Assembly: GCA_001816585.1 (NCBI GenBank)
Contig: MHCJ01000006.1
Span: 40 to 64,039 of the forward strand
DNA length: 64,000 nucleotides
Source: Candidatus Chisholmbacteria bacterium RIFCSPHIGHO2_01_FULL_52_32
GTDB taxonomy: Bacteria; Patescibacteriota; Microgenomatia; UBA1400; Chisholmbacteraceae
Direction: 5' to 3'
Shown: piece by piece, positions 1-63,675 of the stretch
How positions within the stretch are numbered: the first letter of the stretch is position 1
Layout: the number at the start of each line of letters is the position of its first letter
Notes under the pieces: model-generated
The model's input: only the letters and a program-made list of their open reading frames with translations
Databases searched by the model: none
What the model was told of the DNA's origin: nothing
Program-made: the position numbers and the translations under genes

Positions 1-980
1 TTCCCCTTGATAGTCCTTGATTTCCCTTGATACCCCTTGGCGGCGTCCAAGCCGCCCGCGCTCACCTGGAAGTACTTCAGGAACAATTCCAGCGTATCCG
101 GGTAGGGGACGAAGTCCGCATCAAACACGACGATGAATTCCGCTCTGGGGTCAGTGGCTTTGAGGGCTTCTTTGAGTGCTCCTCCCTTGAAGCCTGCCCG
201 GGTATCTCTATGGAGAAGCTTGATAAGGGGCGTAGAGCCTAGGGCATAGGGCGTAGCGTCTCCCTCTGTATTCTCTGCTCTCTGCTCTCTGCCCTCTGCC
301 CTTAGCCCTAAGCGCTTAGCATTCCATTCTTCGGCAAACTGCCGAACAATGGCCGTGGTCTCATCCGTACTGTCATCGCAGACGATCACTTCATACCGCT
401 CATAATCGAAGGAGCTGCAGGCTTTAAGGAGTCTCTCCACCACCCGCGGTTCGTTGTAGACGGGGAGATGGATGGAGATGAAGGGATACCGCTCAAGCTT
501 CACCTGGGAGACATCGGGCTCCAATCCTCCTCCCCTCTGCTCTTCGCTCTCTGCCATCCGCCCTCCACCCTCAACCCTCGACCCTAAACCCTCTCCTCTC
601 ATCATCCCTATCCCGAACAGCTTCCCCAACCATCCCGTTTTGAATTTGCCTGCCCTGAGCTTTGTCGAAGGGGAAGGTGAAATTTGAAGTGTATGTGGAA
701 CTTGTGATTGGTCATTGGTGATTTCTTCCGAAGCTTCTCTTGAAAAGCTCAACACGACTGCCAGGGTGAAGTAGTACTTGAGGGAATAAAGGAAGAAGAG
801 AGTGCCGGAAATAAGCGCCAGGGAGGCAAACACCCATCCCAGAGCTTGGATCGAGTTGGTGGCAGTTCCCAAGAGTCTTCCCCATGCGAAAAGCCCAAAG
901 AAGATAAAGATTGAGAGAAGGATAAACGTGGAGAAACGCCGAAGGAGGAGGACCGCTTGCCTCGCCGAAGTCCTGAGCAT
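1..980 (-). CDS. Family 2 glycosyltransferase, CesA/hyaluronan-synthase-like; partial, runs off the window start. N-terminal TM helix after Met at 978-980, then a low-complexity G/E/R linker.
   Basis: Manual minus-strand translation gives ...YPFISIHLPVYNEPRVVERLLKACSSFDYERYEVIVCDDSTDETTAIVRQFAEEW...EFIVVFDADFVPYPDTLELF..., a GT2 DXD-type catalytic region. The frame stays open to position 1. It is missing from the ORF track because there is no stop inside the window. Confidence 0.6.
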   Translation of the reverse strand, partial: MLRTSARQAVLLLRRFSTFILLSIFIFFGLFAWGRLLGTATNSIQALGWVFASLALISGTLFFLYSLKYYFTLAVVLSFSREASEEITNDQSQVPHTLQISPSPSTKLRAGKFKTGWLGKLFGIGMMRGEGLGSRVEGGGRMAESEEQRGGGLEPDVSQVKLERYPFISIHLPVYNEPRVVERLLKACSSFDYERYEVIVCDDSTDETTAIVRQFAEEWNAKRLGLRAEGREQRAENTEGDATPYALGSTPLIKLLHRDTRAGFKGGALKEALKATDPRAEFIVVFDADFVPYPDTLELFLKYFQVSAGGLDAAKGYQGKSRTIKG

Positions 981-1937
981 ATCGAAGGACGGAGGCGGGG
1001 CGGGAGCCCGCGTCGGCACGAACTGCTCCCATACTTGCTTGAGCCGATCTTGCCAGGATAGTGCAGGCCGTACCGCCAATGTTACTGGCGTGTGCGCCTG
1101 GGCGTAAGCTAATCGCCTTTCAAATGTATTCAAACTATATCGTAACAATATATTCTGTATCGCATGATGACCTATATCCGGTATCTGCGCCTTTAGTCGA
1201 TGTACGGAAAGCCGGGGTTCCGCAACCACCGCCTCCAGCACTCGCGAAACGACGATTGGAGGCGTCCAGCGCCGATGCAGATCACCAACCGCATACCGAT
1301 CACCCAAGGATTCAATAAGGAAAGCCTCGCGCAGCTTTGCCTCTTCGTATCGCTGTTTCCAAAAATAGAAAGTCTTCCGACTCACCCGAAATTCCCGACA
1401 AGCCTCACCCACGCGCTTTCCTTCTAAGAGCACAGCTTCAATCAACCGCTTTCGACTATTAGGTAAAAGGCGAAAAGCCCGACGCCCCAAAACATCCGTA
1501 ACCCCCTTCACGGTCTGATGAAGCCGGCTGAACTCCTCACGCTGCGAAGCCGTAGAAAGATCAAGTTCTTTGAGTAAAGTGTGGATGGCGTGATGGCCAA
1601 TTTCCTTTCCGCAGTTGCGTAGCGCTTGACAGATCTGTCTGCTACTCCACTCGGGGTGGGAAACCACAAAACGAAGGACAAATCGCCGGAACTTGCTCCG
1701 ACGCTCCCGTGGGTGTTCGGAGCCCATAGGGTAGCGAAACTGAAGGGCCAAGCGACTCCCCCGCCCCCGACGTCCCTCCCACAACCGCTTCCAGCAGTAG
1801 AAGGTTTTTCGCGAAATGCCATTCTCCCGGCAAACAAGCGAAACCGGCTTCTTTTCCTCAAGTACAAGCCTCAAGATTCGCTCACGAACATGCGCAGGAA
1901 AACGTTTGAAGCGGTGCAATTTGAATGGGGCAGACAT
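981..1937 (-). CDS. Two tandem copies of an IS481-family-transposase-like N-terminal DNA-binding module (HTH plus integrase N-terminal HTH). No DDE catalytic domain. Same frame as the downstream GT2 with no intervening stop.
   Basis: Translated codon by codon from Met 1935-1937. Rep1 is RERILRLVLEEKKPVSLVCRENGISRKTFYCWKRL...VVSHPEWSSRQICQALRNCGKEIGHHAIHTLLKEL and rep2 is RKRLIEAVLLEGKRVGEACREFRVSRKTFYFWKQRY...RRWTPPIVVSRVLEAVVAEPRLSVHRLKAQIPDIGHHAIQNILLRY. There is no stop until 1974-1976 (TAG) upstream of the Met. Confidence 0.4.
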
Positions 1938-6031: not shown

Positions 6032-6382
6032 TTAGCGAAGAGACCTCTTAAAAGAAACTAACTTACGCGACAACATATCTGCTTTTTCGTAAAGATGATG
6101 TCTTTCCCTCTCCTTTAAGTATCCTTGCTTTTCGGCAATAAGCAAATGAGATGCTGTTTCAAACAAGCTCTTACGAGCATAATCTAAATAGTTCTTGTTG
6201 TCTTTTATCGTAGCTGCCGCTGAACCCTCTGCAATATTCGCAGGGATAGAAACAGCACTCCTCCATATCTGAGCGGTTAAACTGAAGAGCTCGCTTTTCG
6301 GCCATAACTTGGTCAAGAGATAAACTTCGCTGACAAAGTCGGCCGCCAGCCTCCAAACATCCAAAGTCTCAAACCGAAACAT
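6032..6382 (-). CDS. Four-helix-bundle protein (23S rRNA intervening-sequence-protein-like family).
   Basis: 116 aa. The motif content (WRLAADF..., ...IAEG...) resembles the family of proteins encoded within 23S rRNA intervening sequences. Recognised from memory, not searched. Confidence 0.55.
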   Translation of the reverse strand: MFRFETLDVWRLAADFVSEVYLLTKLWPKSELFSLTAQIWRSAVSIPANIAEGSAAATIKDNKNYLDYARKSLFETASHLLIAEKQGYLKERERHHLYEKADMLSRKLVSFKRSLR

Positions 6383-7520: not shown

Positions 7521-7620
7521 ATGCGAATTGGCGGGACCGTTCACGGGGCAGGTTTTCTTGGTTACTTCTTTGCCTGAACAAAGAAGTAACTGTCATTCTT
7601 GTGTAAAAAAATAAAAGAAA
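7521..7620. repeat. Partial copy (3' portion) of the roughly 190-bp repeat family (C4).
   Basis: ...ccgttcacggggcaggttttcttggttacttctttgcctgaacaaagaagtaactgtcattcttg matches the 3' ends of the copies at 11497, 12476 and 37735. Confidence 0.5.
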
Positions 7621-8356: not shown

Positions 8357-8468
8357 GATCCCCCTCGTAAACTACAATCTCTGCATGATAACACATCAGC
8401 AGTATTTTTGAGCACCATAGAAACAGTACCCTTGGAATATCGCGTGAAACCCGCCGTAGTCCCGAGCA

Positions 8469-9416
8469 ATGTCGAGGGGCGAAGAAGGGTATCCCTTCAT
8501 TGATCCCTTGCCAAGAACGGCTTACAATGAACTCGTGAAGAAACCACCCGTGGTATCACAACCCCTTGCTTTTAAAACCCCTCCCGACGACCAACCCTCA
8601 GAAGATTTCTTCGAAGAAGCCGCCCTTTCCGGCGAGATAAAACCGCCGAAGAGGAAAATACATAAAGCCGATCTTCTCATTTGGCTTGGGATCGGTATCA
8701 TGTTTATCCTGTTTCTTGCCACCCGATATTATCGTATGGCCAGGCTGAGTAAGTCCCTATCAATACCACCCTTCTTCCAAGCCACCCCCACTCCCAATCC
8801 AACCGCCGACTGGAAAACACATCGAAGTGAAAAGTTTATGGTAGAGCTGAAATACCCTCCCGATTGGGAATTGCACGACAGTACAAATCAAGAAAATCCA
8901 TATTTACAAATTATAAAACGTGGTCCTTCAGGCTCCGAGCTTGATTGGACCGATGGTTCAGTGCTTAGCATCTCTATGACTGACTCTATTGAAGTCAATC
9001 TTGAAAAAGAATTTGTCTTACCTCATGATATCGTCGAAAAAATGAACCCAAAAGTATTTAGCTTCAATGGTTGGCAAGGATATAGACATAGTAAGTTCTT
9101 TGATTCTCCTGAAAATCGTCCCGAAAACTATTTTGAAGAGATTATCGCAACAAACACATCGCAGTCTGGAAAGATATTCAGAATCACTTGGTCCCAGATG
9201 AATGCCAATAACGGACTGACAGCAGAAAAATATCTTTTCCCGATCCTCTCCAGCTTCAAATTTCTAGACGAAAAGGCTGAAAATGCGAAGTGTGCTCAAG
9301 ACTCCGATTGTCAGAGCATCTGTGACGTATGCAGAGAAGGAGTCTGTAAGTACCAACTCGGCTGCCATCCGCTGCCCGATGAACTACGTTACGAAGAGAC
9401 ACCAACGATCGAATAG
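8469..9416 (+). CDS. Hypothetical single-pass membrane protein with a C-terminal Cys-rich module.
   Basis: One of the few plus-strand genes. One TM helix (LLIWLGIGIMFILFLA). The C-terminus reads CAQDSDCQSICDVCREGVCKYQLGC. Confidence 0.45.
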   Translation: MSRGEEGYPFIDPLPRTAYNELVKKPPVVSQPLAFKTPPDDQPSEDFFEEAALSGEIKPPKRKIHKADLLIWLGIGIMFILFLATRYYRMARLSKSLSIPPFFQATPTPNPTADWKTHRSEKFMVELKYPPDWELHDSTNQENPYLQIIKRGPSGSELDWTDGSVLSISMTDSIEVNLEKEFVLPHDIVEKMNPKVFSFNGWQGYRHSKFFDSPENRPENYFEEIIATNTSQSGKIFRITWSQMNANNGLTAEKYLFPILSSFKFLDEKAENAKCAQDSDCQSICDVCREGVCKYQLGCHPLPDELRYEETPTIE

Positions 9417-11433: not shown

Positions 11434-11496
11434 CTAAACTCCACGCAACAAGAAACCCCGGCAACAAACCAAGTACCCTTTGAGCGGCTTCTTTGT

Positions 11497-11700
11497 TCTT
11501 CATTCCCCTTTGAACGCAGCAATTCAAGACGAGCCGAGCGAAGACCATTAAAAAAGCGACCACTGTTCGACGAGCCTTTAGAGCGAGAAGTTTGGTCGCA
11601 TAGTCTAAAGGGAGGCGAAGTCCTGAATGACCGTTCAAGGGGCACCCTTTCTTGGTTCCTTCTTTGGGTGAGCAAAGAAGGAACTGCCATTCTTGGGCAC
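11497..11700. repeat. Copy C1 of a repeat family of about 190 bp. The 5' end ccctttgaacgcagc... is complementary to the internal ...cgttcaagggg, and a stem-loop closes the 3' end.
   Basis: Aligns along its whole length with the copies at 12476-12665 and 37735-37920. Confidence 0.55.
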
Positions 11701-11752
11701 ACAAAGAAAGTGGCTTTTTTTGGACAAGAGAAGAAACGGCCAGCCATCCCCT

Positions 11753-12458: not shown

Positions 12459-12475
12459 ATAAGTGTGTTTATGTT

Positions 12476-12665
12476 ACCCCTTTGAACGCAGCTACTCAAG
12501 ATGAGACGAGCGAATTCTAATAAGAAGTCATCGACTGTTCGACGAAGTGTTTACCACGAGGAGTTTGATGACATTGATGAGCGAGGCGAAATCCTGAGAG
12601 AACGTTCAGTGGGGTGCGCTTCTTTGGTTACTTTCTTGCGCAAACAAGAAAGTAACTTAATCCGC
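12476..12665. repeat. Copy C2 of the roughly 190-bp repeat family. Its 3' hairpin overlaps the stop of the CvpA-CAP gene.
   Basis: cccctttgaacgcagctactcaagatgagacgagcgaat...cgttcagtggggtgcgcttctttggttactttcttgcgcaaacaagaaagtaac. Confidence 0.55.
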
Positions 12666-15824: not shown

Positions 15825-15935
15825 TACTCCCTATTTATCCTGAGCGGACTTGTCCTGAGTGACCTGTGGAGAGCCAAGCTGAACCAAATCGAAGGAGTCG
15901 AAGGACTCCATATTTATGCTGAGCGGAGTCGAAGG
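15825..15935. repeat. Interspersed element, copy A: ...atcctgagcggacttgtcctgagtgacctgtggagagccaagctgaaccaaatcgaaggagtcgaaggactcc... plus a duplicated tail.
   Basis: About 85% identical over roughly 75 bp to 33157-33235. Shares its core with segments inside nnr (26583-26628) and nrdJ (46312-46340). Confidence 0.65.
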
Positions 15936-15939
15936 ACTC

Positions 15940-17331
15940 CTAAAACAACGACATCTGAGTATCGGGCTCCGAAGCTTCTTCTCCAAAGATCTCAACCTTC
16001 CCAAAAACTCCATCGTAGCCAGGGCGGATTGAAATATTACCGTTTCGTACTTTTCGAATCGCCTCCCCTAAACGCTCTCCTTTAAACCGGGCTAATTCCT
16101 CAAGGGAAATCTGAAGCAGCACTGCAAACTCGCTTCCGAACTTTGTAACCAAAGAATGGTACTCACTAAGTACAGTATTACTTGATACACCAGAATGATA
16201 AACTTCACTTAATATCTCCAGCAGGGGAACAAGCATGACAAAAGGCGGCCGCGTTTCGTCTGACGGATGAGAAAGAGAAGTCACACCAACTGTATCCGAC
16301 TTCCGCGCGGTCGTTAAAGCGAATAACTCGTGATCGCTTAACTGGTCAACCCTGTACATCACCCCGACCGTCAGCGGTCTCCCGCAGACATGGCAGATAA
16401 CCCCTCGCTTTCGTGTCTCCTCCGGCGATTGAATAACCCCACAACTGCGATGTCCATCATAATGGTACTTCCCCTCCTCCGGATAGAATTCGATTGTAGA
16501 GGCAATCTGAAGCTTCCCCTCGTTCCTCCCCAAAAAACGTTCCGCAATCGCCCAATAAATATCGTTGTATTCAAAATTTGTCATTTGTAATTTGTCATTT
16601 GTCATTCCGTTTTTCTCCTGAAAAACGGTGGCCTCTCTTCCCAATTTCGGCCCGGAGTGGGCATCAGAGAATGACACGATCGCCCGCCTTTGAAGCTCGC
16701 TGATCCTCCAGTTCATAAGGGGGTCCGAAGAAAGACCGGTTTCCACCGCAAAAATCGATCCCGCCAAGTCCCCGAAACAGTCATCAATGGAGTCAAAGCC
16801 ACTTTTCGAGCCGTACAGACTAAACCACGGCGTCCACGCATGAGCCGGAATCACAAGACATCGCTGACTGACGGAAAACGCGATTTCTGCAATATCTCTT
16901 GCGGAAAGCCCGACAATGGGCCGGCCATCGGAGGCAAGATTACACCCCCGCTTCAAAAGCTCTGCGTTGATCCGCTCTGCTATCGCAAAGTCGGGAGCAA
17001 ACACAAGGGTATGAACCCTATGCGACTTTCCTCCCTGCGTGTAGATACTCGATATCTCCGCCGAAAGCAAAAACTTCACCTCACCCTGATCTCCTGGTCC
17101 CACCGCAACTTTTGACTTTTGACTTTCAACTTTTAACTGATAGATGCCCTCGCTCACCTCCTCAAGTTGACTTTGGATCTCCCGAAACCAAAGCGTATGC
17201 ATCCAATCTCCAGTGGCAACCAGATCAATACCCTTTCTCCTCGCCCATGACACAATTTCCGAAAGATCCATATTTTTTGAAACTGCCCGGGAATATTTTG
17301 AGTGAAGTTGAAGATCGGCGATAAGTTCCAC
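15940..17331 (-). CDS. PHP-domain (polymerase/histidinol-phosphatase-like) metal-dependent phosphoesterase.
   Basis: The N-terminal ADLQLHSKYSRA...DLVATGDWMH is a PHP signature. Two in-frame heptamer inserts: LKVESQKSKV and MTNDKLQMTNFE. Confidence 0.6.
   Translation of the reverse strand: MELIADLQLHSKYSRAVSKNMDLSEIVSWARRKGIDLVATGDWMHTLWFREIQSQLEEVSEGIYQLKVESQKSKVAVGPGDQGEVKFLLSAEISSIYTQGGKSHRVHTLVFAPDFAIAERINAELLKRGCNLASDGRPIVGLSARDIAEIAFSVSQRCLVIPAHAWTPWFSLYGSKSGFDSIDDCFGDLAGSIFAVETGLSSDPLMNWRISELQRRAIVSFSDAHSGPKLGREATVFQEKNGMTNDKLQMTNFEYNDIYWAIAERFLGRNEGKLQIASTIEFYPEEGKYHYDGHRSCGVIQSPEETRKRGVICHVCGRPLTVGVMYRVDQLSDHELFALTTARKSDTVGVTSLSHPSDETRPPFVMLVPLLEILSEVYHSGVSSNTVLSEYHSLVTKFGSEFAVLLQISLEELARFKGERLGEAIRKVRNGNISIRPGYDGVFGKVEIFGEEASEPDTQMSLF
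16576..16607. repeat. Tandem heptamer repeat (ATTTGTC/ATTTGTA), inside the PHP gene and in frame.
   Basis: atttgtcatttgtaatttgtcatttgtcattc. Confidence 0.8.
17108..17138. repeat. Tandem heptamer repeat (ACTTTTG/ACTTTCA/ACTTTTA), inside the PHP gene and in frame.
   Basis: acttttgacttttgactttcaacttttaact. Confidence 0.8.
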
Positions 17332-21954: not shown

Positions 21955-22095
21955 AACTTCCAAAGGAGAGCGCGGAACAAATTTCGCAGGTCGCATCGGC
22001 CAGTCCGCCAGCTGGCGGACTGGCTAGCATCCCGAACACGAAAAGCCGACCAAAACCGAACCTTGTGCGACCAAGAAATTTCCGTTAAACGATCT
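21955..22095. repeat. Intergenic element R1 of about 140 bp, with a perfect 10-bp-stem palindrome ccagtccgccagctggcggactgg.
   Basis: Shares aaaggagagcgcggaacaaatttcgc...ggccagtccgccagctggcggactgg...gcgaccaagaaatttccgtt with the copy at 63535-63675. Confidence 0.6.
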
Positions 22096-23880: not shown

Positions 23881-24144
23881 GACCCTAAACCCTCTACCCT
23901 AAACCCTCTACCCTCATTCAATTTAAATCTGCCGCAAAACGATATACGCGAGAATAACAACAACGATAAACAGGGACCCAAATATCAAGCTTAACCATCC
24001 TCCTAAATCACTCTTAACAAGTTTGTGCAAGCCCTCCCCGATAAGGGTAAACCCAAACAGGCTTGGAATAATAAGGACCATATAAAGTAACTGAGGATCA
24101 GAAAAATCAATCATCCGCCTCCGCTGTTTATGGACGCCTTCGTG

Positions 24145-26211: not shown

Positions 26212-27237
26212 TCAATACGCCAACACTTCCTTCATCACCGCTGGAACTTCCGCCACTAAATCACCCGCATTAAAGTACGGTCCGACACGCCGAAACAACC
26301 GATCCCCCGCTTGCTTGTTGATAAAGCTCCCCGCCTTCGCCGCCAAAAACGCCTCGTCCTTACAATACAGCGCACCGACCAGTCCCGCCAACACATCTCC
26401 CGTTCCTCCTTTCGTCATCCCCTCATTCCCCCCTTCCACTACCACACACTCCTCTCCCCAACAAATAATATCTTTTTTCCCCTTCAACAACACCGTCACT
26501 CCCCCAAGATATTTGGAAACCTCCCCAACCAAATGGGCCAACTGTCCATCGTTAATTTTTAATTTTGAACTGTAATTTTGCTTGCCCTGAGCGAACTTGT
26601 CCTGAGCCTCGTCGAAGGAGTCGAAGGGAACTTTAAATATTAAACTTTTAATTTTACTCAGCAGTCTCCGAAACTCTCCCCCATGCGGCGTAACGATCAT
26701 GTTATCATTGAAAAGTCCCGGATCAACTTCCTGCAATGCCCCTCCGTCAATCACCCACCGCTTACCGGGAAACTTCTGCAAAAGCCCGTTTACGATCTCC
26801 TCCGTAGGTTGCTCCCCTACCTCCAATCCCTCCCTTCGCGGCATCCCCGGCCCGATCACCACACAATCATCTTCCAAAATATATTCTTCAACCCTCTCCC
26901 ACGGCACCACAATCCCGTTCCAAAACTTCTCCTTCGTTCTCTTCCGCACAAGGTCATTATTTTCCATTGCCGGCGAAGAGAAATGAACCAAGTCAACAAT
27001 CCGACTTGCCACATCCGCGGTCCAAAAGATCGAAGAATGAAAAAGCTTGCTCCCTCCGATAACCAGAAGCCTCCCATTCTGACCCTTATGGGAATCTGCT
27101 GGAGGACGGTAAAGTCCCTGAAGATCTGCTGGTCCAATAGTTTTCATGACAACTTCAAAAAAACCGCTTCTCCCCCCATTATACCCCAAGGCCATTCTCT
27201 GGCCGCCTTTGGTATAATTCACGCCATGCATCGCCAA
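26212..27237 (-). CDS. ADP-dependent (S)-NAD(P)H-hydrate dehydratase domain protein (Nnr C-terminal / carbohydrate-kinase-like).
   Basis: ...LLVIGGS... and GGTGDVLAG motifs. Contains a composite insert of about 110 bp in frame, KIKSLIFKVPFDSFDEAQDKFAQGKQNYSSKLKIN. Confidence 0.65.
   Translation of the reverse strand: MAMHGVNYTKGGQRMALGYNGGRSGFFEVVMKTIGPADLQGLYRPPADSHKGQNGRLLVIGGSKLFHSSIFWTADVASRIVDLVHFSSPAMENNDLVRKRTKEKFWNGIVVPWERVEEYILEDDCVVIGPGMPRREGLEVGEQPTEEIVNGLLQKFPGKRWVIDGGALQEVDPGLFNDNMIVTPHGGEFRRLLSKIKSLIFKVPFDSFDEAQDKFAQGKQNYSSKLKINDGQLAHLVGEVSKYLGGVTVLLKGKKDIICWGEECVVVEGGNEGMTKGGTGDVLAGLVGALYCKDEAFLAAKAGSFINKQAGDRLFRRVGPYFNAGDLVAEVPAVMKEVLAY
26553..26662. repeat. Composite insert inside nnr: AT-rich heptamer repeats flanking a copy of the cctgagcgaa...gtcgaaggagtcgaagg element core.
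   Basis: gttaattttttaattttgaactgtaattttg, then cttgccctgagcgaacttgtcctgagcctcgtcgaaggagtcgaagggaac, then tttaaatattaaacttttaattttac. Read in frame on the minus strand. Confidence 0.75.
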
Positions 27238-33122: not shown

Positions 33123-33156
33123 CAAGTATTGCCGAAAATCTCCATTTCTTATTTAA

Positions 33157-33235
33157 TCCTGAGCGAACGCGTCTTGAGTGACCTGTGGTGAGCGAAGTCG
33201 AACCAAATCGAAGGAGTCGAAGGACTATTCACCCT
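33157..33235. repeat. Interspersed element, copy B: aatcctgagcgaacgcgtcttgagtgacctgtggtgagcgaagtcgaaccaaatcgaaggagtcgaaggact.
   Basis: About 85% identical to 15838-15912. Confidence 0.65.
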
Positions 33236-37176: not shown

Positions 37177-37249
37177 TGCTAGGGGTGGGATTCGAACCCA
37201 CGACCTATCGCTTATGAAACGACCGCTCTGCCACTGAGCTACCCTAGCA
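37177..37249 (-). tRNA. tRNA with anticodon CAU, either elongator Met or Ile2/lysidine. They cannot be distinguished by eye.
   Basis: Minus-strand cloverleaf: GCUAGGG / UA / GCUC-AGUGGCAGA-GAGC / GUCGU-UUCAUAA-GCGAU / AGGUC / GUGGG-UUCGAAU-CCCAC / CCCUAGC-A. Confidence 0.85.
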
Positions 37250-37295: not shown

Positions 37296-37578
37296 CTTGA
37301 GTGTTGCGGGGCCAGGAGTTGAACCTGGTCTGCGAGATTATGCGTGTTGTTTTCTCCAGTTTCCTGGAGTACCGGACTATGTCTTAACCCGTTAGATAAT
37401 CATAATCACATATCTAATGGGTTCCTGGCGTATAGTCTCTACGGATTCCCATTCAAGGTCTTTCCTCGGCGTTGCCGTACTCAGTTCATGAGGGTAGGTT
37501 TCGCCGATATAGCCAGGTGCACTCCATCAATTACTCGATAGAGGGCCCATCATTGAGCCTCACGTGCTACCGTACACT
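37296..37578 (-). tRNA. Initiator tRNA-fMet (CAU) interrupted by a group I intron in the anticodon loop.
   Basis: 5' exon CGCGGGGUAGUGUACGGUAGCACGUGAGGCU. 3' exon CAUAAUCUCGCAGACCAGGUUCAACUCCUGGCCCCGCAA. The C1 x A72 mismatch and the CGCGGGG...CCCCGCAA acceptor are initiator hallmarks (compare E. coli tRNAfMet CGCGGGG...CCCCCGCAACCA). The spliced anticodon loop is CUCAUAA. Confidence 0.7.
37335..37547 (-). ncRNA. Group I intron of about 213 nt inserted between U33 and C34 of tRNA-fMet.
   Basis: The 5' exon ends in U (the P1 U-G pair) and the intron ends in G. The core elements resemble the R and S elements as I recall them from group I introns such as Tetrahymena's (written from memory): GUAGAGACUAUACG against an R-like ucAGAGACUAnA, and UAAGACAUAGUCCGG against an S-like AAGAUAUAGUCC. 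An IGS-like GGGCCCUC can pair with the exon end GAGGCU. Confidence 0.65.
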
Positions 37579-37734
37579 ACCCCGCGCGTTGTCAAAACGA
37601 GCCAATTTTACCAAATTCCTCTGGAAAAATCAACCTAAAAAAACGTCTCTCTCTAAACGCATTTCAATTGGACCAAGAAGCATGAAGTATTGAGTAAGAA
37701 GGAAATAAACTCGCTTTGGGGATCTCTTCTTGAA

Positions 37735-37920
37735 TACCCTTTGAACGCAGCTACTCGAGAACGACGTGAGCGAATACCATTAAGATGTCATCGACTGTCC
37801 GACGAAGGGTTTATCCCGAGAAGTTTGATGACAAAGGATGAGCGAACGAGCTCCCGAGAGACCGTTCACTGGGGCGTCATTCTTTGGTTACTTTCTTAGA
37901 CGAGTAAGAAAGTAATAAAT
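37735..37920. repeat. Copy C3 of the roughly 190-bp repeat family.
   Basis: accctttgaacgcagctactcgagaacgacgtgagcgaat...cgttcactggggcgtcattctttggttactttcttagacgagtaagaaagtaat. Confidence 0.55.
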
Positions 37921-38476: not shown

Positions 38477-39355
38477 ATGAATGGGTCCAATTCCCTATCC
38501 CTTAAGCAGTCACGCGAAGAATTCATTGCAGACCTCCGCGCAAAAAAGCGTGCAACCGCTACCATTCTAGCATATGGGAAAGATATCGAGCAGCTTGCCG
38601 AGTTTCTCGAAAAAACCGAGATCACCTCAACAGAAGCAATCACCCCGGAGCACATCAAAGCCTTTACGCTCAACTTAGGGAAACTCAACTACACTGCCAA
38701 ATCCATCTCTAGAAAAATTAATTCTATCAAGTCCTTCTTTCGATTTCTAAAGGCTAAAGAGTATATCGAAACAAATCCCACCACCGCGATCGTTCATCCG
38801 CGTTACGACGTCAAGCCACCAAGAGTTCTTTCAAAGATGGAATACCGGGCCCTTCGCGATGCCTGTCGTTCGGACACGAGAATCTCTTCAATTGTAGAGA
38901 TGCTCCTGCAAACCGGAATACGGATCGGCGAACTCGCCAACCTGAGAATTGAGGACCTTGATCTTGAAAAAAGCGCCATGACCATCCAACCATACGAATC
39001 GCACGGGCTCCGAACCGTACCCCTCACAAGAGCCGCCCACAAAGCCCTCGAAGACTATATCGAAGAACGTCCGAAAACACGGGAGAAAACACTCTTTGTC
39101 ACCAAAACCGGCCGCCCATTCCTCGTCCGGAACATCAGAGCAGCCATTGATCGCTACTTCAAGCTGGCAGGGATAAAAGATGCGAAAGTCAATGACCTCC
39201 GCCACACCTTCATTGCCCAACAGTTGATCGCCGGAACGCCGTTGGTATATATTTCAAAGCTCGTTGGCCACAAACGGCTCTCCACTACCGAAAAATACCT
39301 CAAGGTCATCAGCGAAAAAGTGGAAAAAGACGAAGTGAAACTGGAAGAGCTCTAA
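38477..39355 (+). CDS. Tyrosine site-specific recombinase, XerC/XerD-like.
   Basis: 292 aa with an N-terminal core-binding domain and a catalytic R...HxxR...Y (LRHTF...TEKYLKV). Confidence 0.75.
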   Translation: MNGSNSLSLKQSREEFIADLRAKKRATATILAYGKDIEQLAEFLEKTEITSTEAITPEHIKAFTLNLGKLNYTAKSISRKINSIKSFFRFLKAKEYIETNPTTAIVHPRYDVKPPRVLSKMEYRALRDACRSDTRISSIVEMLLQTGIRIGELANLRIEDLDLEKSAMTIQPYESHGLRTVPLTRAAHKALEDYIEERPKTREKTLFVTKTGRPFLVRNIRAAIDRYFKLAGIKDAKVNDLRHTFIAQQLIAGTPLVYISKLVGHKRLSTTEKYLKVISEKVEKDEVKLEEL

Positions 39356-39651: not shown

Positions 39652-39723
39652 TGCGCCCGCTTGGATTCGAACCAAGGACATCTACTTTATAAGAGTAGCG
39701 CTCTGCCGCTGAGCTACGGGCGC
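39652..39723 (-). tRNA. tRNA-Ile with anticodon UAU (reads AUA).
   Basis: Minus-strand cloverleaf: GCGCCCG / UA / GCUC-AGCGGCAGA-GC / CUACU-CUUAUAA-AGUAG / AUGUC / CUUGG-UUCGAAU-CCAAG / CGGGCGC-A. Positions 34-36 are UAU. Confidence 0.75.
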
Positions 39724-39865
39724 TCGCTGCCGGAGGAATTATACCACCGACCCCTCTACCCTACTTGCCCGACGAAGCATCCAGAATGGAGTCTTGACTA
39801 ATGATCAAGACGGAATCTCTGGAGCAGAGGCGGGAACCCTATACGCTAAACGCTAGACGCTATTC

Positions 39866-44025: not shown

Positions 44026-44112
44026 TCTAAACCCTAGACGCTAAACCCTAAACGCTACTGACAATTGTTGCATTTTTCTCCACTTATCGTTGCATCCAGA
44101 CGAAAAGTGCTT

Positions 44113-45271: not shown

Positions 45272-47587
45272 CTACACTTCACAAACGCTGTACCCGCACA
45301 GCTGGCACTTTGAACAACCCTCGGTAAACGACATCGGTCCGCCGCATTCCGGACACTTGCCCCCTTCCGTCTCACCCACCCCAAAAGAGGCCGCCCGTAC
45401 CGCAAGCGGTGTGACAGAAAGTTTGCTCTGAATCCGAACACTCTTCGATTCCTTCTCAAGGATCTGCACCGACTTGCTTTTATCCCGATAGATCGTGATC
45501 CCTTTACACCCCATCTTCCAGGCTAACCGATAGGCCTTTTCGACATCCTCGATCACTGCCGATTCCGGAAAGTTGATCGTCTTGGAAACCGCATTATCGG
45601 TGTATTCCTGAAACGCCCCCTGCATTCGCACATGCCATTCTGGAGAAATATCATGGGCAGTCCGGAAAACATCCTTTATCCACTGTGGAATACCCAAAAC
45701 GGAGGTAACGCTCCCCGTTTTTGAGACTTCATGAAGGAGAGGTTCAATTGCGCTCCGCTCACCGTTTCCAACCGCACCAGCCAGCGCCTGTTCAAAAGAA
45801 GTGTTCATATACGTCAACCCTTCCTGATCTACAACGTTTTTCACAAATGAAAGAGCAAAGATCGGCTCGATCCCGGATGAGCAATCGGCAACCATGCTGA
45901 TCGTCCCTGTGGGGGCTATGGTCGTGACGGCAACATTCCGCACTTTCACTCGCTTCCCCAAATGCGGATGCTTTCGTGCAAAGTCGCTCTTCTCCCATAG
46001 CGGGAACGCACCCTTCTCCGCAGCAATCCTCGCGCTTTCATCCCATCCGATCCTCTGAATGAACTGCGCCACTTTCTTTGCCAAACGAACAGCTTCCTCG
46101 CTGTCGTATCGGACACGAAGCGAAACTAATAAATCCGCCCATCCCATCACCCCGAGGCCAATCCGACGGACATTATGTGCCATGGCGCTGATTTGAGGAA
46201 TGGGATAAAAACTCGCATCAATCCCGTCATCCAAGAACCGTACCGCTATTCGCACGACCTCCTCCAACCGCTTCCAATCAATGAGGTCTTCTGTTTTACC
46301 CTTTGCCCTTTGCCCGCTTGTCCTGAGCGAAGTCGAAGGATTGCCCTTTGCCTTTTTAACAAACTTCCCCAAATTAACAGACCCTAAGTTGCACACGTCA
46401 AACGGATGAAGCGGTTGTTCCCCGCAAACATTGGTTGCCGTAATAGGCCCAAGAGCCTTAAGAAGCGGGTTATCTCGATTGATCGCATCAAGATAAATCA
46501 TTCCCGGATCGCCGGTTTTCCATGCCAAAGCAACAGCCTGGTCAAACACCGTCCGCGCCTTCGTTCGCCGTACGACCGCGCCCGTACGCGGATTCACCAA
46601 ATCCCAATGACCATCCTTCTCAACCGCTCCCATGAACGCATCACTCGCCCCCACCGAAATATTGAAGTTGCCAATTTCCCCTTCCTGCGTCTTGCAGGTG
46701 ATAAATTCAAAAATATCCGGGTGGTCGGCATTCAGGATGCCCATGTTAGCCCCGCGGTGGCGCCCTCCAAGCATCACGATCTCCGTCGCCGCATCAAACG
46801 CCTTCATAAACGAAACGGGCCCTGAGGCAAATCCGCCGCCACCGACCGCATCTCCGTTCGGTCGAAGCTTGGAAAAATTGTAACCAGTCCCCCCACCCGA
46901 CTGATGAATGAGTGCTGTCCACTTCACCGCATCAAAAATTGCCTCCATGTCATCCTCAACCGGTAACACGAAGCAATTTGCGAGTAGCCCCCGTTTTTGC
47001 CCGGCTCCCCGAAAGTAACAACCTGCCGGAACAAAAGAAAACGTGCTCATTATCTCGCTAAATTTTTGCTCCCAAGCCTTACGCTGACGCTTCTCGACTG
47101 CGGAAACACAAGCAGCCACTCGCTCCACCGCTTGTCGGGGCGTTTCAACCACATTCCCCCGTTCATCTTTGAGAAGATAACGCCTGGCCATTGCCTTGAG
47201 AGCATTGACGGACATCCCGAGGTCATCCTCAACGCCCAACACGTTCCGCACTGTCCGCAGCTCCGCTTGTCGTTGTCGGAAGAGGATGTACGCCTTCGCC
47301 GTACGGTAGTGAGACCCCGCCATCAATACCTGCTCTACGATATCCTGCACCTGCTCAACAGTCGGAATCACCTTTCTCGCCCCTCGAAGCCCTGGCGAAG
47401 TGGGGCCATTGGTTCGCCGGAGAAGTTCAATCACAATACTCGTCAGCCGCTTCGCTTCAATTTCCCCGAACTCGCCGGTTACAGCCGAAGATTTTAAGAT
47501 CGCAATGGTGATCTTGGCGGGATCAAACGCTACCACCCCTCCATCGCGCTTTCTGATCTGCTTAATGGCGAAAGCGTTATCTGCCAT
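45272..47587 (-). CDS. nrdJ: Class II (adenosylcobalamin-dependent) ribonucleotide reductase, paralog 1, with an N-terminal ATP-cone and C-terminal Zn-ribbon.
   Basis: ATP-cone (IRKRDGGVVAFDPAKI), a catalytic core with NLGSVNL, the PTGTIS motif, and a C-terminal CPECGG...C..C..C. An in-frame insert AKGNPSTSLRTSGQRAKGK matches the interspersed repeat core. Confidence 0.85.
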   Translation of the reverse strand: MADNAFAIKQIRKRDGGVVAFDPAKITIAILKSSAVTGEFGEIEAKRLTSIVIELLRRTNGPTSPGLRGARKVIPTVEQVQDIVEQVLMAGSHYRTAKAYILFRQRQAELRTVRNVLGVEDDLGMSVNALKAMARRYLLKDERGNVVETPRQAVERVAACVSAVEKRQRKAWEQKFSEIMSTFSFVPAGCYFRGAGQKRGLLANCFVLPVEDDMEAIFDAVKWTALIHQSGGGTGYNFSKLRPNGDAVGGGGFASGPVSFMKAFDAATEIVMLGGRHRGANMGILNADHPDIFEFITCKTQEGEIGNFNISVGASDAFMGAVEKDGHWDLVNPRTGAVVRRTKARTVFDQAVALAWKTGDPGMIYLDAINRDNPLLKALGPITATNVCGEQPLHPFDVCNLGSVNLGKFVKKAKGNPSTSLRTSGQRAKGKTEDLIDWKRLEEVVRIAVRFLDDGIDASFYPIPQISAMAHNVRRIGLGVMGWADLLVSLRVRYDSEEAVRLAKKVAQFIQRIGWDESARIAAEKGAFPLWEKSDFARKHPHLGKRVKVRNVAVTTIAPTGTISMVADCSSGIEPIFALSFVKNVVDQEGLTYMNTSFEQALAGAVGNGERSAIEPLLHEVSKTGSVTSVLGIPQWIKDVFRTAHDISPEWHVRMQGAFQEYTDNAVSKTINFPESAVIEDVEKAYRLAWKMGCKGITIYRDKSKSVQILEKESKSVRIQSKLSVTPLAVRAASFGVGETEGGKCPECGGPMSFTEGCSKCQLCGYSVCEV
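46297..46352. repeat. In-frame insert inside nrdJ paralog 1: CTTTGCC heptamers flanking the cctgagcgaagtcgaagga element core.
   Basis: ccctttgccctttgcccgcttgtcctgagcgaagtcgaaggattgccctttgcc. Confidence 0.75.
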
Positions 47588-48516: not shown

Positions 48517-48553
48517 TCTAACTTTTAACTTTTCACTTTAAACTTTAAACTTT
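48517..48553. repeat. AT-rich heptamer tandem repeat, intergenic and overlapping the nrdJ paralog 2 stop.
   Basis: aacttttaacttttcactttaaactttaaactttaca. Confidence 0.8.
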
Positions 48554-50821
48554 ACAGTAGCTATATCCGCAATTCGCGCACGTCGCACACCCTTCGCTAT
48601 ACGTGAGTTCGCTACCGCACTCCGGACAAGCTGTCCCTTCCCTTGACGCCTTCTCTCCCATCGACCGGGGTACTTTCGCTTCCGCAAGGTTCAACACTTG
48701 ATCCGTCTTGCTTCCGTCCCGATAAATAGTAATACCCTTGCACCCGAGCCTCCAGGCCAAAAGGTAGGCCTCTCGGACATCCCGGGCACTTGCTCCTTGA
48801 CGAAAGTTGATCGTTTTTGAAACCGAGTTATCGCAGTGTTTCTGCCACGCAGCTTGAATCTTCACATGCCAAGGCCAGTCGATGTCGTGGGTCGTAACGA
48901 ATACGTCCCGCATCCGCTTCGGCAGTCCCCGAAGACCGAGAAGATGGCCAAACTTGCTGAGGTGCTTGAACACATCCTCCCTGGTAACAGAAAGGGGGCG
49001 ACTCGCAATCTGCGCCTCCAGTACTTCCGAGAATACCGGATCAACGATGGTTAACGACTTCGTTGGACGATTCTTGCGATCGTCCTCATAGAAGGTACGC
49101 CGGGTAGTGAGGAGGGAAAACACCGGTTCAATTCCCGAAGAGCAATTGGCAAAAAGACTGATAGTTCCCGTAGGAGCTATGGTCAGCATCGTGGCATTCC
49201 GATAGCGCTCCGACGTCCCCGAATAAAAGCTCATGTCAAAATTGGGGAACACCCCGCGCTTCTTCGCCAACTCCAAAGAGGCGGCTTCCGCCTCCTTCTG
49301 AATGAACTTTCCCAAATGATCGGCCATCTGAACAGCCAAAGAAGAGTTATAAGGGATTCCCATACGGTACAAAAGATGGGCAAATCCCATGACCCCCAAC
49401 CCGATCTTCCGATTCCCAAACCGTACGATCCGCTCAATTTCAGGCAGAACGTAGGTATTCGCCTCAATCATGTCATCCAAAAAGCGAATCACCGTCCGAA
49501 CCGTCCTCCCCAACTCATCCCAATCAACTTCCCACCCAAATGGGTCATCGGCTTTCTTTCTCCGAAGGTGCGAGGAGAGGACGATGGAGGAAAGATTACA
49601 GCTTTCAAAGGGTAATAGCGGCTGTTCCCCGCAGGGATTTGTCGCATCAAGCTTCCCCAGTGTCGGTGTCGGATTGTCCTGCTCTAGTCGATCCAAAAAG
49701 ATCATCCCCGGATCCCCGGTTTTGTGGGCAAATTCGACAATTGCCCAAAAAAGCTCTGAGGCCTTCATGGTTTTTTGCACTTCTCCCGTTCGCGGATTCG
49801 TAAGATTCCACGGCTTTCCCTTCACCACCGCCTCCATAAATGCATCCGGCGCGCCCACGGAAATGTTGAAATTTTTGATGTTTCCGTCCGTCGCTTTAAT
49901 CTTGACGAATTCCAAAAGGTCAGGATGATCGGCATTGAGAATGGCCATGTTCCCCCCCTGTCGCTTTGCTCCCTGAAGAATCTTAGACAGTGCCGCCGAA
50001 TAGGCCTGCAGAAAGTCAACCGGACCGCTGGCTGCCCCCGGAACGTTTTTGACCTTATCGCCCCGCGGCCGGATCTTCGAGAAGTTGAATCCCGTACCGC
50101 CGTTGTTCTTATGGACTAAAGCCGCCTCCCCCAACGTCTTAAAAATCGCCGCAATACTATCCTCAATCCCCAACACAAAACAGGCAGACAGCTGTCCCGT
50201 TCCCCCGTCGTTACCCGCCTCAAACATCGCCTTTCCCGAACAAATAAAGCGGAAGTTGACCATGCGGTCAAAAAACTCCCGTGCCGTCCGCTCCACATCC
50301 CGTTCATCCCCCCAGGCAATCTCTGCCTTGGCGATAGATCGTGCCACCCGCCAAAGCATCTGCCCCGCAGACTCGACCGGCCGTCCCTTCATGTCGGTAC
50401 GGACATACCGTTTTGTCACAACCGCAAGAGAGTGATCCGCCAAAACGGGTTCCCGGATCTGCCAAGTGTCTTTCCTTTGCCCCTTATGAGTCCCGTACAA
50501 AATATAGTACTTGGCTGTCGCAAAATACCCGGCTTTGGCTATCGCAGGTTCAACGAGGTTTCGTATCTCAAGAACGGTAACCAGTCGCCGATCCCGAAGA
50601 TCGCTACGGAGCACGTTGATAACTCCATCGATGATCCCCTGAGCCCCGGCCTCTGAATACTCACCGGTGTCCGATCCGGCTGCCACCACACTCGCCTCAA
50701 TCTTCGAAAGTAAAAATGGCTCAATCCGTCCGTCTTTCTTGCGAACCTGCAAAGATTTTGGGAAAGGTTGTTTGCGAAAACCGAAAGGTTGAACGGGTTT
50801 TCGAGGGTAAAGTAGCTGCAT
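48545..50821 (-). CDS. nrdJ: Class II ribonucleotide reductase, paralog 2, with an ATP-cone and C-terminal Zn-ribbon.
   Basis: ATP-cone (VRKKDGRIEPF), NLSSIVL, PTGTIS and CPECGS...C..C..C. Confidence 0.85.
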   Translation of the reverse strand: MQLLYPRKPVQPFGFRKQPFPKSLQVRKKDGRIEPFLLSKIEASVVAAGSDTGEYSEAGAQGIIDGVINVLRSDLRDRRLVTVLEIRNLVEPAIAKAGYFATAKYYILYGTHKGQRKDTWQIREPVLADHSLAVVTKRYVRTDMKGRPVESAGQMLWRVARSIAKAEIAWGDERDVERTAREFFDRMVNFRFICSGKAMFEAGNDGGTGQLSACFVLGIEDSIAAIFKTLGEAALVHKNNGGTGFNFSKIRPRGDKVKNVPGAASGPVDFLQAYSAALSKILQGAKRQGGNMAILNADHPDLLEFVKIKATDGNIKNFNISVGAPDAFMEAVVKGKPWNLTNPRTGEVQKTMKASELFWAIVEFAHKTGDPGMIFLDRLEQDNPTPTLGKLDATNPCGEQPLLPFESCNLSSIVLSSHLRRKKADDPFGWEVDWDELGRTVRTVIRFLDDMIEANTYVLPEIERIVRFGNRKIGLGVMGFAHLLYRMGIPYNSSLAVQMADHLGKFIQKEAEAASLELAKKRGVFPNFDMSFYSGTSERYRNATMLTIAPTGTISLFANCSSGIEPVFSLLTTRRTFYEDDRKNRPTKSLTIVDPVFSEVLEAQIASRPLSVTREDVFKHLSKFGHLLGLRGLPKRMRDVFVTTHDIDWPWHVKIQAAWQKHCDNSVSKTINFRQGASARDVREAYLLAWRLGCKGITIYRDGSKTDQVLNLAEAKVPRSMGEKASREGTACPECGSELTYSEGCATCANCGYSYCKV

Positions 50822-52864: not shown

Positions 52865-53335
52865 TTATGTGACGTGTTTTCCTAAACGCTCTATCTCCCG
52901 CTTAAAATCATCAATATCCTGAAAGTCTCGGTAGACGCTCGCAAAAAGGATGTAACCAACCGGGTCCAATTTGCGAAGCCTGGTCACCACCAACTTCCCG
53001 ATTTCCCAGCTTTTCACTTCCTTATTTGCTCGAGCTCTCAGCTTCTGTTCAACCTCTTCAACCAAAGACTCAATCTGTTCGATCGTTACGGGCCGCTTCC
53101 ACGTCGCCTTCATCAAACCTTTCCGAAGCTTATCCCGGTCAAACGACTCCCTTCTCCCGTCTTTTTTGATCACCACTAAGTCGAGTCCCTCAACCCGCTC
53201 ATACGTTGTAAATCGCTTCGCACATCTCTCGCACTCTCGACGCCGACGGATGCTCTGCTCATCTTCCGAGATTCTGCTCTCAAGGACACTGCTTTCAGTA
53301 GTTCCACAGTAGGGACACTTCATGGAAAATCCCAA
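52865..53335 (-). CDS. nrdR: Transcriptional repressor NrdR.
   Basis: N-terminal Zn-ribbon MKCPYCG...C..C followed by an ATP-cone. 156 aa. Confidence 0.9.
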   Translation of the reverse strand: MGFSMKCPYCGTTESSVLESRISEDEQSIRRRRECERCAKRFTTYERVEGLDLVVIKKDGRRESFDRDKLRKGLMKATWKRPVTIEQIESLVEEVEQKLRARANKEVKSWEIGKLVVTRLRKLDPVGYILFASVYRDFQDIDDFKREIERLGKHVT

Positions 53336-63534: not shown

Positions 63535-63675
63535 TATCAAAAGGAGAGCGCGGAACAAATTTCGCCGGTTGCTTAGGCCAGTCCGCCAGCTGGCGGACTG
63601 GTATGGAATACAACGAACGCCTGCAAATCGTGATTGCGCCGTTTGCGACCAAGAAATTTCCGTTGCAGGGGTCTC
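63535..63675. repeat. Intergenic element R2, the second copy of the palindrome-containing element.
   Basis: aaaggagagcgcggaacaaatttcgccggttgcttaggccagtccgccagctggcggactgg...gcgaccaagaaatttccgtt. Confidence 0.6.

Follow-up and report, generated by a model that had tools for sequence, protein, structure and literature searches.

The 64,000-nucleotide (nt) window analyzed here, which is the whole stretch of contig MHCJ01000006.1 from position 40 to 64,039, comes from the Candidate Phyla Radiation (CPR) bacterium Candidatus Chisholmbacteria bacterium RIFCSPHIGHO2_01_FULL_52_32. On its minus strand lies nnr, which encodes a stand-alone NAD(P)HX dehydratase (YjeF_C / Carb_kinase) and carries an in-frame insert of repeat-derived DNA (Table 1). 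This insert consists of two arms of tandem heptamers that enclose two copies of a 24-nt hairpin unit, one copy nested within the other. We estimate a probability of roughly 80% that it represents selfish or slippage-derived repeat DNA, built up in three steps within a permissive surface loop of a still-functional nnr and translated as a hydrophilic, probably disordered excursion of 36 residues.

The nnr open reading frame (ORF) is open upstream as far as a TTG at 27237 (ORF 26212..27237, minus strand), and its translation contains PHGGEFRRLLSKIKSLIFKVPFDSFDEAQDKFAQGKQNYSSKLKINDGQLAHL / TPHGGEFRRLLSKIKSLIFKVPFDSFDEAQDKFAQGKQNYSSKLKINDGQLAHLVGE, exactly the read-through sequence quoted in the original prediction, which had been made from the letters and their ORFs without database searches. 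In an alignment with orthologs, these begin at M31 (window position 27147), hence the product is probably 311 aa long. It matches Pfam PF01256 at 102.3 bits (cutoff 27) over profile positions 1-240 of 242, and an AlphaFold model built on 57 orthologs reached a mean predicted local distance difference test score (pLDDT) of 91.2 and a predicted template modeling score (pTM) of 0.91. The best Foldseek matches of this model, TM0922 (E 7e-20), EF1790, SMU.573, and YxkO, are solved Nnr/YjeF structures, and its predicted ribokinase-like fold agrees with that of the solved Nnr/YxkO proteins. The motifs SHKG, GGS, TPHxGE, and GGxGDVLAG are all kept, each in columns that are invariant in alignments A1 and A3. 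By profile, predicted fold, and motifs, the ORF is an NAD(P)HX dehydratase.

Placement of the insert within this fold relied on ortholog alignments of 30-56 sequences and on solved Nnr structures. The spacing between the GEFxRL and VLLKG motifs is 53 residues in the window Nnr vs. ~17 in insert-free orthologs of 275 aa (e.g., that of the syntenic contig L126), and 51 residues of the ORF remain unaligned where Thermotoga TM0922 has 20. The segment spanning the insert reads IFKVPFDSFDEAQDKFAQGKQNYSSK, the insert itself being SKIKSLIFKV-PFDSFDEAQDKFAQGK-QNYSSKLKIN. In the model, it lies between a helix at residues 156-165, after the TPHGGE motif, and a helix at residues 200-213, before the VLLKG strand, i.e., not between beta-strands, a location that had been put forward for checking. 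The 10-residue blocks over residues 171-200 have pLDDT values of 58, 51, and 65, compared to 85 and 95 for the adjoining blocks. Since the inserted residues are both unaligned with orthologs and structures and modeled at low pLDDT, they do not form part of the conserved fold, in line with the original prediction. That prediction had placed a composite of 110 bp at 26553-26662; the composite is present, but its extent is the 108 nt given in Table 1.

The two arms are tied to other heptamer arrays of the window through repeat families D6 and D14, and are contiguous with each other in the sister contigs L001 and L220. Deleting the 48-nt core between them (26581..26628) joins the two 30-nt arms into a single 60-nt array of ~8.5 units, which reads on the coding strand AGTAAAA TTAAAAG TTTAATA TTTAAAG + TTCAAAA TTACAGT TCAAAAT TAAAAAT, with the core sitting at the boundary of units 4 and 5. 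The lag-7 identity of this joined array (0.62) was equalled in only 1 of 5000 shuffles, and the middle 48 nt form a clean indel made of two element copies; the earlier suggestion that the insert is repeat-derived holds, and its repeats exceed what chance would produce. The core had been described as one "interspersed-element core", and proves instead to be two 24-nt units. On the plus strand it reads CTTGCCCTGAGCGAA, then an inner CTTGTCCTGAGCCTCGTCGAAGGA, then GTCGAAGGG, where the outer unit corresponds to CTTG + CCCTGAGCGAA, interrupted, + GTCGAAGGG. In silico removal of the inner 24 nt (26596-26619) restores a perfect unit, CTTG+CCCTGAGCGAAGTCGAAGGG, which matches exactly the pattern scanned in public genomes, hence our division of the core into two units. 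The inner copy is identical at 21 of 24 positions to a stand-alone unit found elsewhere in the window (CTTGTCCTGAGCGAAGTCGAAGGA, 46317-46340). The lengths of all layers in the insert are multiples of 3 (60 + 24 + 24), and a six-frame translation of the unit (8 codons) is free of stops in 5 of 6 frames. Because of this length and this scarcity of stops, insertion of a unit keeps the reading frame. The frame in which the unit itself is read varies with the host gene, giving an SFDFAQDK-type peptide in nnr and PSTSLRTS in a ribonucleotide reductase (RNR) gene.

Comparison of related lineages separates the insert into layers of different age. The closest relative lacking the middle is contig L001, which encodes a protein (P0002) 76-80% identical to the window Nnr, and the DNA alignment of the two differs here by one clean 48-nt indel; on a second sister contig, L220, the flanks of this indel are 90-93% identical. 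Every site-spanning member of this lineage's 90% protein cluster holds the full composite, including NCBI entries OGY17772.1 and OGY20740.1 and P0122 (one sequence on 13 contigs); the independent contigs L002 and L003 hold it as well. By contrast, where sequences of the sister cluster extend over the site (P0002, P0125, and P0126), they have the heptamer-coded KIKSLKFKVQNYSSKIKI and lack the core. As judged from these sequences, the heptamer array is older than the units, and the units are lineage-specific. A metagenome scan with fixed flanks and a nested gap of 0-30 nt returned 0 matches, which indicates that the organism is not represented in that metagenome collection.

In more distant orthologs, this position of Nnr is occupied by repeat DNA of other kinds: (YTCAAAA)x8 in L124, (CCAAATT)x4 in L125, (GAAATCC)x3 flanking a GC-rich hairpin in L128, and, in L127, a unit split as ATCCTG...TCGAAGGAT, within which other hairpins are nested. 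A search for the 24-nt unit across L124-L129 and 20.8 kb of L126 found none. Based on these sequences, the Nnr loop is a recurrent sink for repeats. A second hypervariable site lies after the GPGMxR motif, where low-complexity inserts of 20-70 aa are found in orthologs P0058, P0069, P0103, P0104, P0114, and P0115; the window Nnr has no insert at that site (alignment A1, columns 140-225).

Heptamer arrays are abundant throughout the window. Exact runs of at least 2.5 copies number 11 at period 7, vs. 0-2 at each of the remaining periods between 4 and 15; the syntenic L126 has no such run. Similarly, Tandem Repeats Finder (TRF) reported 31 heptamer arrays in the 64-kb window vs. 2 in 20.8 kb of L126. 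Roughly two thirds of these arrays (~20 of 31) lie wholly within long ORFs, in frame. When eight array-host ORFs were scanned, seven matched housekeeping families, namely glutamate dehydrogenase (Gdh), Lgt, Pth, DNA ligase, RecF, a family 4 glycosyltransferase (GT4), and a 5'-3' exonuclease, and one (15940..17331) had no family match. The array of the glutamate dehydrogenase sits at a domain linker and the ATP-dependent DNA ligase has arrays at two sites; RNR is also a host. Array indels between the window and sister contig L220 measure 21 and 42 nt within ORFs and 29 and 89 nt between genes, counting only indels with clear repeat sequence as the whole-locus DNA alignment is noisy (62% identity). 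This difference is what selection for the reading frame would be expected to produce. Although the unit sequences of these arrays vary widely, their period does not depart from 7, suggesting that the underlying process measures length instead of copying a single template. Some intergenic arrays (23882-23915, 39835-39862, and 44027-44057) contain telomere-like heptamers (ACCCTAA, CTAAACC).

The hairpin unit occurs at 7 further loci in the window, or 9 further sites if each nested level is counted (Table 1). Both repeat classes co-occur in the nnr insert, as the original prediction had noted, but this is not unique to nnr, since a composite within an RNR gene is built alike. The latter is in frame, is read as GNPSTSLRTSGQRAKGK, and is missing from both RNR paralogs in the window; the three tandem paralogous RNR large-subunit genes (45272-47587, 48545-50821, and 50882-52852, minus strand) adjoin NrdR (52865-53335), and only the first has this heptamer-plus-unit insert. 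That the nnr insert is the largest in-frame insert of the window is plausible, an array block of ~93 nt at 228..320, within a family 2 glycosyltransferase (GT2) domain, being comparable in size. At three loci (nnr, 15834-15905, and 33153-33224), nested inserts of 24, 48, and 48 nt, respectively, share one position in the loop, just behind GAGC-NNN. In the innermost unit at 33186, the stem is TGGT/ACCA in place of TCCT/AGGA, i.e., a compensatory change.

All confirmed units of the window share one orientation, with YCCTGAGC... on the plus strand, and no inverted doublets are found in the window. GC skew on the plus strand ranges from -0.09 to -0.21 over the whole window, including the last 6 kb where genes turn to the plus strand, so that the minus strand, which is mostly coding, is probably the leading strand. 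Unit orientation relative to replication cannot be told apart from orientation relative to transcription within the window. The ORF at 3-1937 (minus strand, 644 aa), which hosts two units as well as two heptamer arrays (228-320 and 561-593), joins two IS3-type helix-turn-helix (HTH_Tnp_1/HTH_28) segments to the N-terminal part of a GT2 glycosyltransferase that runs off the window. It may be a read-through chimera held open by stop-free repeats.

Table 1 Coordinates of nnr, of the parts of its insert, and of the other hairpin units in the 64-kb window.
Feature	Position	Strand	Details
nnr, stand-alone NAD(P)HX dehydratase (YjeF_C / Carb_kinase)	26212..27147	-	311 aa from M31
Whole repeat-derived in-frame insert	26551..26658	-	108 nt, 36 codons, residues 164-199 from M31
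N-terminal-side heptamer arm	26629..26658	-	AGTAAAA TTAAAAG TTTAATA TTTAAAG TT; codes SKIKSLIFKV; TRF row 26629-26656
C-terminal-side heptamer arm	26551..26580	-	C AAAATTA CAGTTCA AAATTAA AAATTAA C; codes QNYSSKLKIN; TRF row 26552-26566
5' part of outer 24-nt unit	26581..26595	+	CTTGCCCTGAGCGAA
Inner 24-nt hairpin unit	26596..26619	+	CTTGTCCTGAGCCTCGTCGAAGGA; in apical loop of outer unit
3' part of outer 24-nt unit	26620..26628	+	GTCGAAGGG
Second composite: TTTGCCC heptamers, unit, heptamers	46295..46352		Unit CTTGTCCTGAGCGAAGTCGAAGGA at 46317-46340 (+); in RNR ORF 45272..47587 (-)
Three nested hairpin units	15834..15905	+	Intergenic; repeat family D11
Single unit	15917..15936	+	TGCTGAGCGGAGTCGAAGGA; intergenic
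Three nested hairpin units	33153..33224	+	Intergenic; repeat family D11, 88% identical to 15834-15907
Single unit	649..672	+	CCTG+CCCTGAGCTTTGTCGAAGGG; within ORF 3..1937 (-)
Single unit	971..989	+	TCCTGAGCATATCGAAGGA; within ORF 3..1937 (-)
Diverged unit	8460..8479	+	TCCCGAGCAATGTCGAGGGG; just upstream of ORF 8469..9416 (+)

The unit is found far beyond Chisholmbacteria. Exact matches to its 20-nt core pattern, YCCTGAGCGAAGTCGAAGGR, come from many phyla and number at least 120 genome contigs, where by our own estimate chance would account for ~4 in 596 Gb. Groups among the matches listed include Acidobacteriota, Bacteroidota, Alphaproteobacteria, Chloroflexota, Cyanobacteria, Verrucomicrobiota, Planctomycetota, Firmicutes, Saccharibacteria, Curtissbacteria, and others, and the same pattern is present in 90 viral contigs of IMG/VR. 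The flanks of these sites are unrelated to each other, so the unit is not a fragment of a conserved gene. Each unit is laid out as a 4-nt 5' head (CYTG in the window) followed by a 20-nt hairpin, with a stem of 4-5 bp (YCCU/AGGR) and the motif GAGC-NNN-GUCGA; its proposed fold would combine tandem G.A pairs with a GAA triloop closed by C-G. Across 218 sites, the 5' flank is conserved (-4 C, -3 T, -2 Y, -1 R) and the 3' flank is not; heads at these sites include CCTG (50), TTCG (26), GTCA (26), CTCA (20), and CTTG (7). Outside the window, units are rarer in long ORFs than random positions (54% vs. 92%), and 24 of 202 (12%) have an inverted partner 15-80 nt downstream. Other phyla show the 20-nt unit in three further arrangements: an alphaproteobacterium has it in 24-nt tandem triplets, Sphingobacteriales have it in longer tandem runs, and in Spirochaetales it sits at the tip of longer palindromes (loci of these arrangements: L017 357-424, L072 1359-1560, and L004 5798-5870).

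The hairpin itself is documented by covariation. Among 103 distinct diverged copies, picked by GAGC-NNN-GTCGA only and excluding the retrieval pattern, the proposed stem pairs in 77% of cells vs. 63% in shuffles. Its covariation score of 0.389, which 0 of 500 shuffles reach, compares to 0.165 when shuffled and to 0.07-0.17 for slid controls, with 43-44 compensatory double changes at each of two stem pairs. Rfam provided no relevant match, either for the whole window at gathering threshold or when the nnr insert, the RNR unit, and a unit from an alphaproteobacterium were scanned permissively. Readings of GAGC-NNN-GUCGA as a hammerhead, K-turn, or T-loop were dropped by eye, as the consensus positions do not fit. 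Within the searchable literature library, a full-text search for the unit sequence or peptide gave only one match, which is unrelated (zebrafish kidney), and nothing relevant turned up on heptanucleotide repeats in CPR, on small dispersed repeats, or on short tandemly repeated sequences.

The favored history of the nnr insert would involve three steps. First, before this lineage and its sister parted, a heptamer array of ~8.5 units (60 nt) would have arisen in the loop that follows the TPHGGEFRRLL helix, or would have expanded there. A 24-nt hairpin mini-element would then have landed exactly between heptamer units 4 and 5, and its apical loop would in turn have received a second copy of the unit, between GAGCGAA and GTCGAAGG, an outer-before-inner order that is deduced from the nesting. 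Arrays would grow and shrink by slipped-strand mispairing, and within ORFs only versions whose length is a multiple of 3 and whose coding strand is free of stops would survive. We have moderate confidence in this combination of slippage and frame-preserving survival. That the insert is translated and tolerated rather than useful appears highly likely from the sequence comparison, because its peptide is not conserved between orthologs and because the same DNA is also found in intergenic regions and, read in other frames, within further genes.

The movement of the unit is a more tentative matter. The conserved 5' head at the hairpin, the insertion in hairpin loops, the uniform strand, and the inverted doublets in other genomes would suit movement as a single-stranded DNA hairpin, resembling that of repetitive extragenic palindromic (REP) elements and driven by a trans-acting Y1/HUH-type enzyme, a route we consider possible but would not bet on. 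Movement may alternatively be RNA-mediated. A broader proposal, which we view as rather unlikely, is that the unit (YYYR head + YCCUGAGC-NNN-GUCGAAGGR hairpin) represents an undescribed, protein-less mini mobile element, among the smallest known, present in many phyla, carried by phages, and entering heptamer arrays as well as single-stranded hairpin loops, its own included. Together with a heptamer-generating process, it would be actively remodeling the surface loops of essential Chisholmbacteria proteins.

Several results weigh against this reconstruction. No single-unit intermediate was found among cluster members. Thermodynamic folds of single, double, and triple units and of the composite, as RNA or DNA, were no better than shuffles (z from -0.75 to +1.5), so that covariation by itself carries the case for the hairpin. 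In other phyla, the link between units and heptamer arrays is not significant, with arrays at 3 of 211 unit sites (1.4%) vs. 11 of 2000 random positions (0.6%). Neither a target-site duplication nor a common target sequence could be defined for the unit, and the scanned ORFs of the window included no Y1/HUH, reverse transcriptase, or IS200-like domain. The only mobility-related genes among these ORFs are the HTH_Tnp_1 remnants in ORF 3..1937 and an Xer-type integrase at 38477..39355.

Among other explanations, the one that survives best, while still improbable, is that the insert is an adaptive functional loop, exapted as a surface for oligomerization, partner binding, or Nnr regulation. Inserts are present at this loop in many Microgenomates orthologs, all recovered copies of the lineage carry the composite without exception, and AlphaFold predicts that residues 178-186, in the part encoded by the units, form a short helix. 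However, sequence, length, and heptamer type all differ between orthologs, hence nothing is conserved at the peptide level, and the pLDDT of the insert is only 51-65. The same DNA modules are moreover found in intergenic regions and, in another frame, in RNR, while orthologs from syntenic genomes do without any insert. There is also little chance that nnr is a decaying pseudogene in which repeats mark lost constraint, even if repeats do invade its coding sequence and CPR genomes are reduced. The ORF is intact, the insert lengths are all multiples of 3, every invariant Nnr residue is kept, and the model is confident by its pTM, while flanks 90-93% identical to the sister lineage point to purifying selection. 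In addition, clearly essential genes (pth, lgt, RNR, and DNA ligase) hold the same kind of insert.

Two further scenarios appear very improbable. The mature protein could lack the insert if the latter acted as a mini-intron, was skipped by translational bypass, or was taken out in the manner of an intein, for which one might cite the hairpin-forming sequence in the mRNA and the presence of a group I intron elsewhere in the window. Yet no Rfam family, intron, or ribozyme match was obtained, and an intein is very unlikely at 36 low-complexity residues, as judged by eye, with no intein search run. The strict multiples of 3 and the lack of stops fit selection on translated sequence, and would be needless if the insert were excised. 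Equally, the heptamer array could be a phase-variation contingency locus switching nnr by slippage, since a copy change of one unit, i.e., 7 nt, shifts the frame and arrays do differ in length between lineages. The units are degenerate, though (lag-7 identity 0.62), which suppresses slippage, the sequence is identical across independent assemblies, the host genes are housekeeping or essential, and the ORF indels observed (21 and 42 nt) keep the frame, all of which differs from the near-perfect, population-variable, frame-shifting tracts of phase-variable contingency loci. Finally, despite the proneness of repeats to misassembly, an assembly or chimera artifact is effectively refuted by the identical insert in the window, L002 (ANAN16 scaffold), and L003 (megahit k141), i.e., in separate assemblies from different pipelines, and by its presence in OGY17772.1, OGY20740.1, and the 13 contigs of P0122.

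If the insert is selfish or slippage-derived repeat DNA, as we favor, read-through repeat DNA can account for part of what looks "extra" in the proteins of CPR bacteria, and heptad-like peptides rich in K/Q/S/N as well as FDFAQDK, PSTSLRTS, and LSEVEG peptides would be signs for annotators and structure predictors to look for. With three insertion layers in a conserved enzyme and a sister lineage that lacks the last two, the nnr locus offers a natural experiment on insertion tolerance. The hairpin, with its covarying stem and its distribution over many phyla and viruses, is uncatalogued, having no Rfam match, and if it is mobile, its mover could now be sought.

The window contains additional repeats and RNA genes that are separate from the nnr insert. 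A group I intron (RF00028, 82.7 bits, 37353-37565, minus strand) lies 105 nt from a complete tRNA gene, with tRNAs located at 37177-37248 and 39652-39723 (minus strand). A repeat family of ~70-200 nt, 76-92% identical (7535-7615, 11494-11709, 12466-12655, and 37727-37915; D9, D10, D17-D19, and I7), contains the hairpin TTACTTTCTTG...CAAGAAAGTAA, and one of its copies adjoins the group I intron region; this family may represent a structured RNA or what is left of a mobile intron. Another repeat, of 65 nt and 92% identical between 21959-22023 and 63537-63601 (D16 and I2), ends in a perfect palindrome of 24-25 nt (CCAGTCCGCCAGCTGGCGGACTGG) and has the appearance of a shared terminator or of a further dispersed element. 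Amid ordinary protein-coding genes lies one that encodes a 23S rRNA intervening-sequence protein (PF05635, E 9e-33, 6032-6382, minus strand), and no rRNA gene was detected at the Rfam gathering threshold anywhere in the window.

Four known systems resemble parts of what is observed here. REP elements and their doublets, REPINs, are mobilized by RAYT (REP-associated tyrosine) transposases of the Y1/HUH type, and REPs are imperfect palindromes with a conserved 5' tetranucleotide, GTAG or CGTC (Bertels & Rainey 2011, PMC3116915). Like them, the 24-nt unit is a short imperfect palindrome with a head conserved on the 5' side only, is dispersed in many copies, with a single orientation in the window, and in other genomes has an inverted partner 15-80 nt away in 12% of cases. 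Unlike them, it has a YYYR head (CCTG, CTTG, GTCA, and TTCG) rather than GTAG, and its stem, no longer than 4-6 bp, encloses an internal motif that is highly conserved; in the window, units are nested or single and never form inverted doublets, units sit within ORFs, and the scanned ORFs include no RAYT gene. Rickettsia palindromic elements (RPEs) are single elements of ~100-150 bp with a family-specific conserved peptide (PMC10969869). They share with the inserts described here an in-frame position in unrelated housekeeping genes, at apparently permissive sites, and the read-through of an extra peptide, whereas the insert in nnr is modular, consisting of 7-nt arrays and 24-nt units, and the frame varies between genes.

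The cyanobacterial short tandemly repeated repetitive (STRR) sequences form many dispersed arrays with a strict 7-nt period, differ in their units within one genome, and are mostly intergenic. The arrays of the window are likewise dispersed, with a fixed period of 7 and differing unit sequences. A tandemly repeated heptamer has been cited as a probe (PMC3542288). The window arrays differ from STRR sequences in belonging to another phylum and in lying inside ORFs in about two thirds of cases.

By behavior, the closest match of the unit would be the small dispersed repeat (SDR) elements of Nostoc and Anabaena (SDR1-8), as compared by their described features. These elements, attributed to work by Elhai and colleagues from 2008, are said to measure 21-27 nt, to encode no protein, and to be confined to one subgroup of cyanobacteria, the heterocystous ones. 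They reportedly form hairpins with compensatory changes, are embedded in tandem heptamer arrays, and are self-nested, and an RNA-mediated route is said to have been proposed for their movement. The unit described here is similarly short (24 nt) and without coding capacity, is embedded in heptamer arrays in both nnr (26551-26658) and RNR (46295-46352), is self-nested, as a double in nnr and as triples at 15834-15905 and 33153-33224, and has a hairpin backed by compensatory changes. Its host, however, is a CPR bacterium (Candidatus Chisholmbacteria) rather than a heterocystous cyanobacterium, its 20-nt core extends over many phyla and viral contigs instead of being confined to cyanobacteria, and many of its units and arrays are in frame within housekeeping ORFs. 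If the unit were indeed a mini mobile element, this would amount to a Nostoc-like "heptamer + SDR" system in CPR, dependent on a widely shared host or phage enzyme. By these comparisons, the unit is probably not a member of the SDR, REP/REPIN, or RPE families, the SDR elements being set apart by description, while it would be the SDR elements that come closest to it in how they behave.

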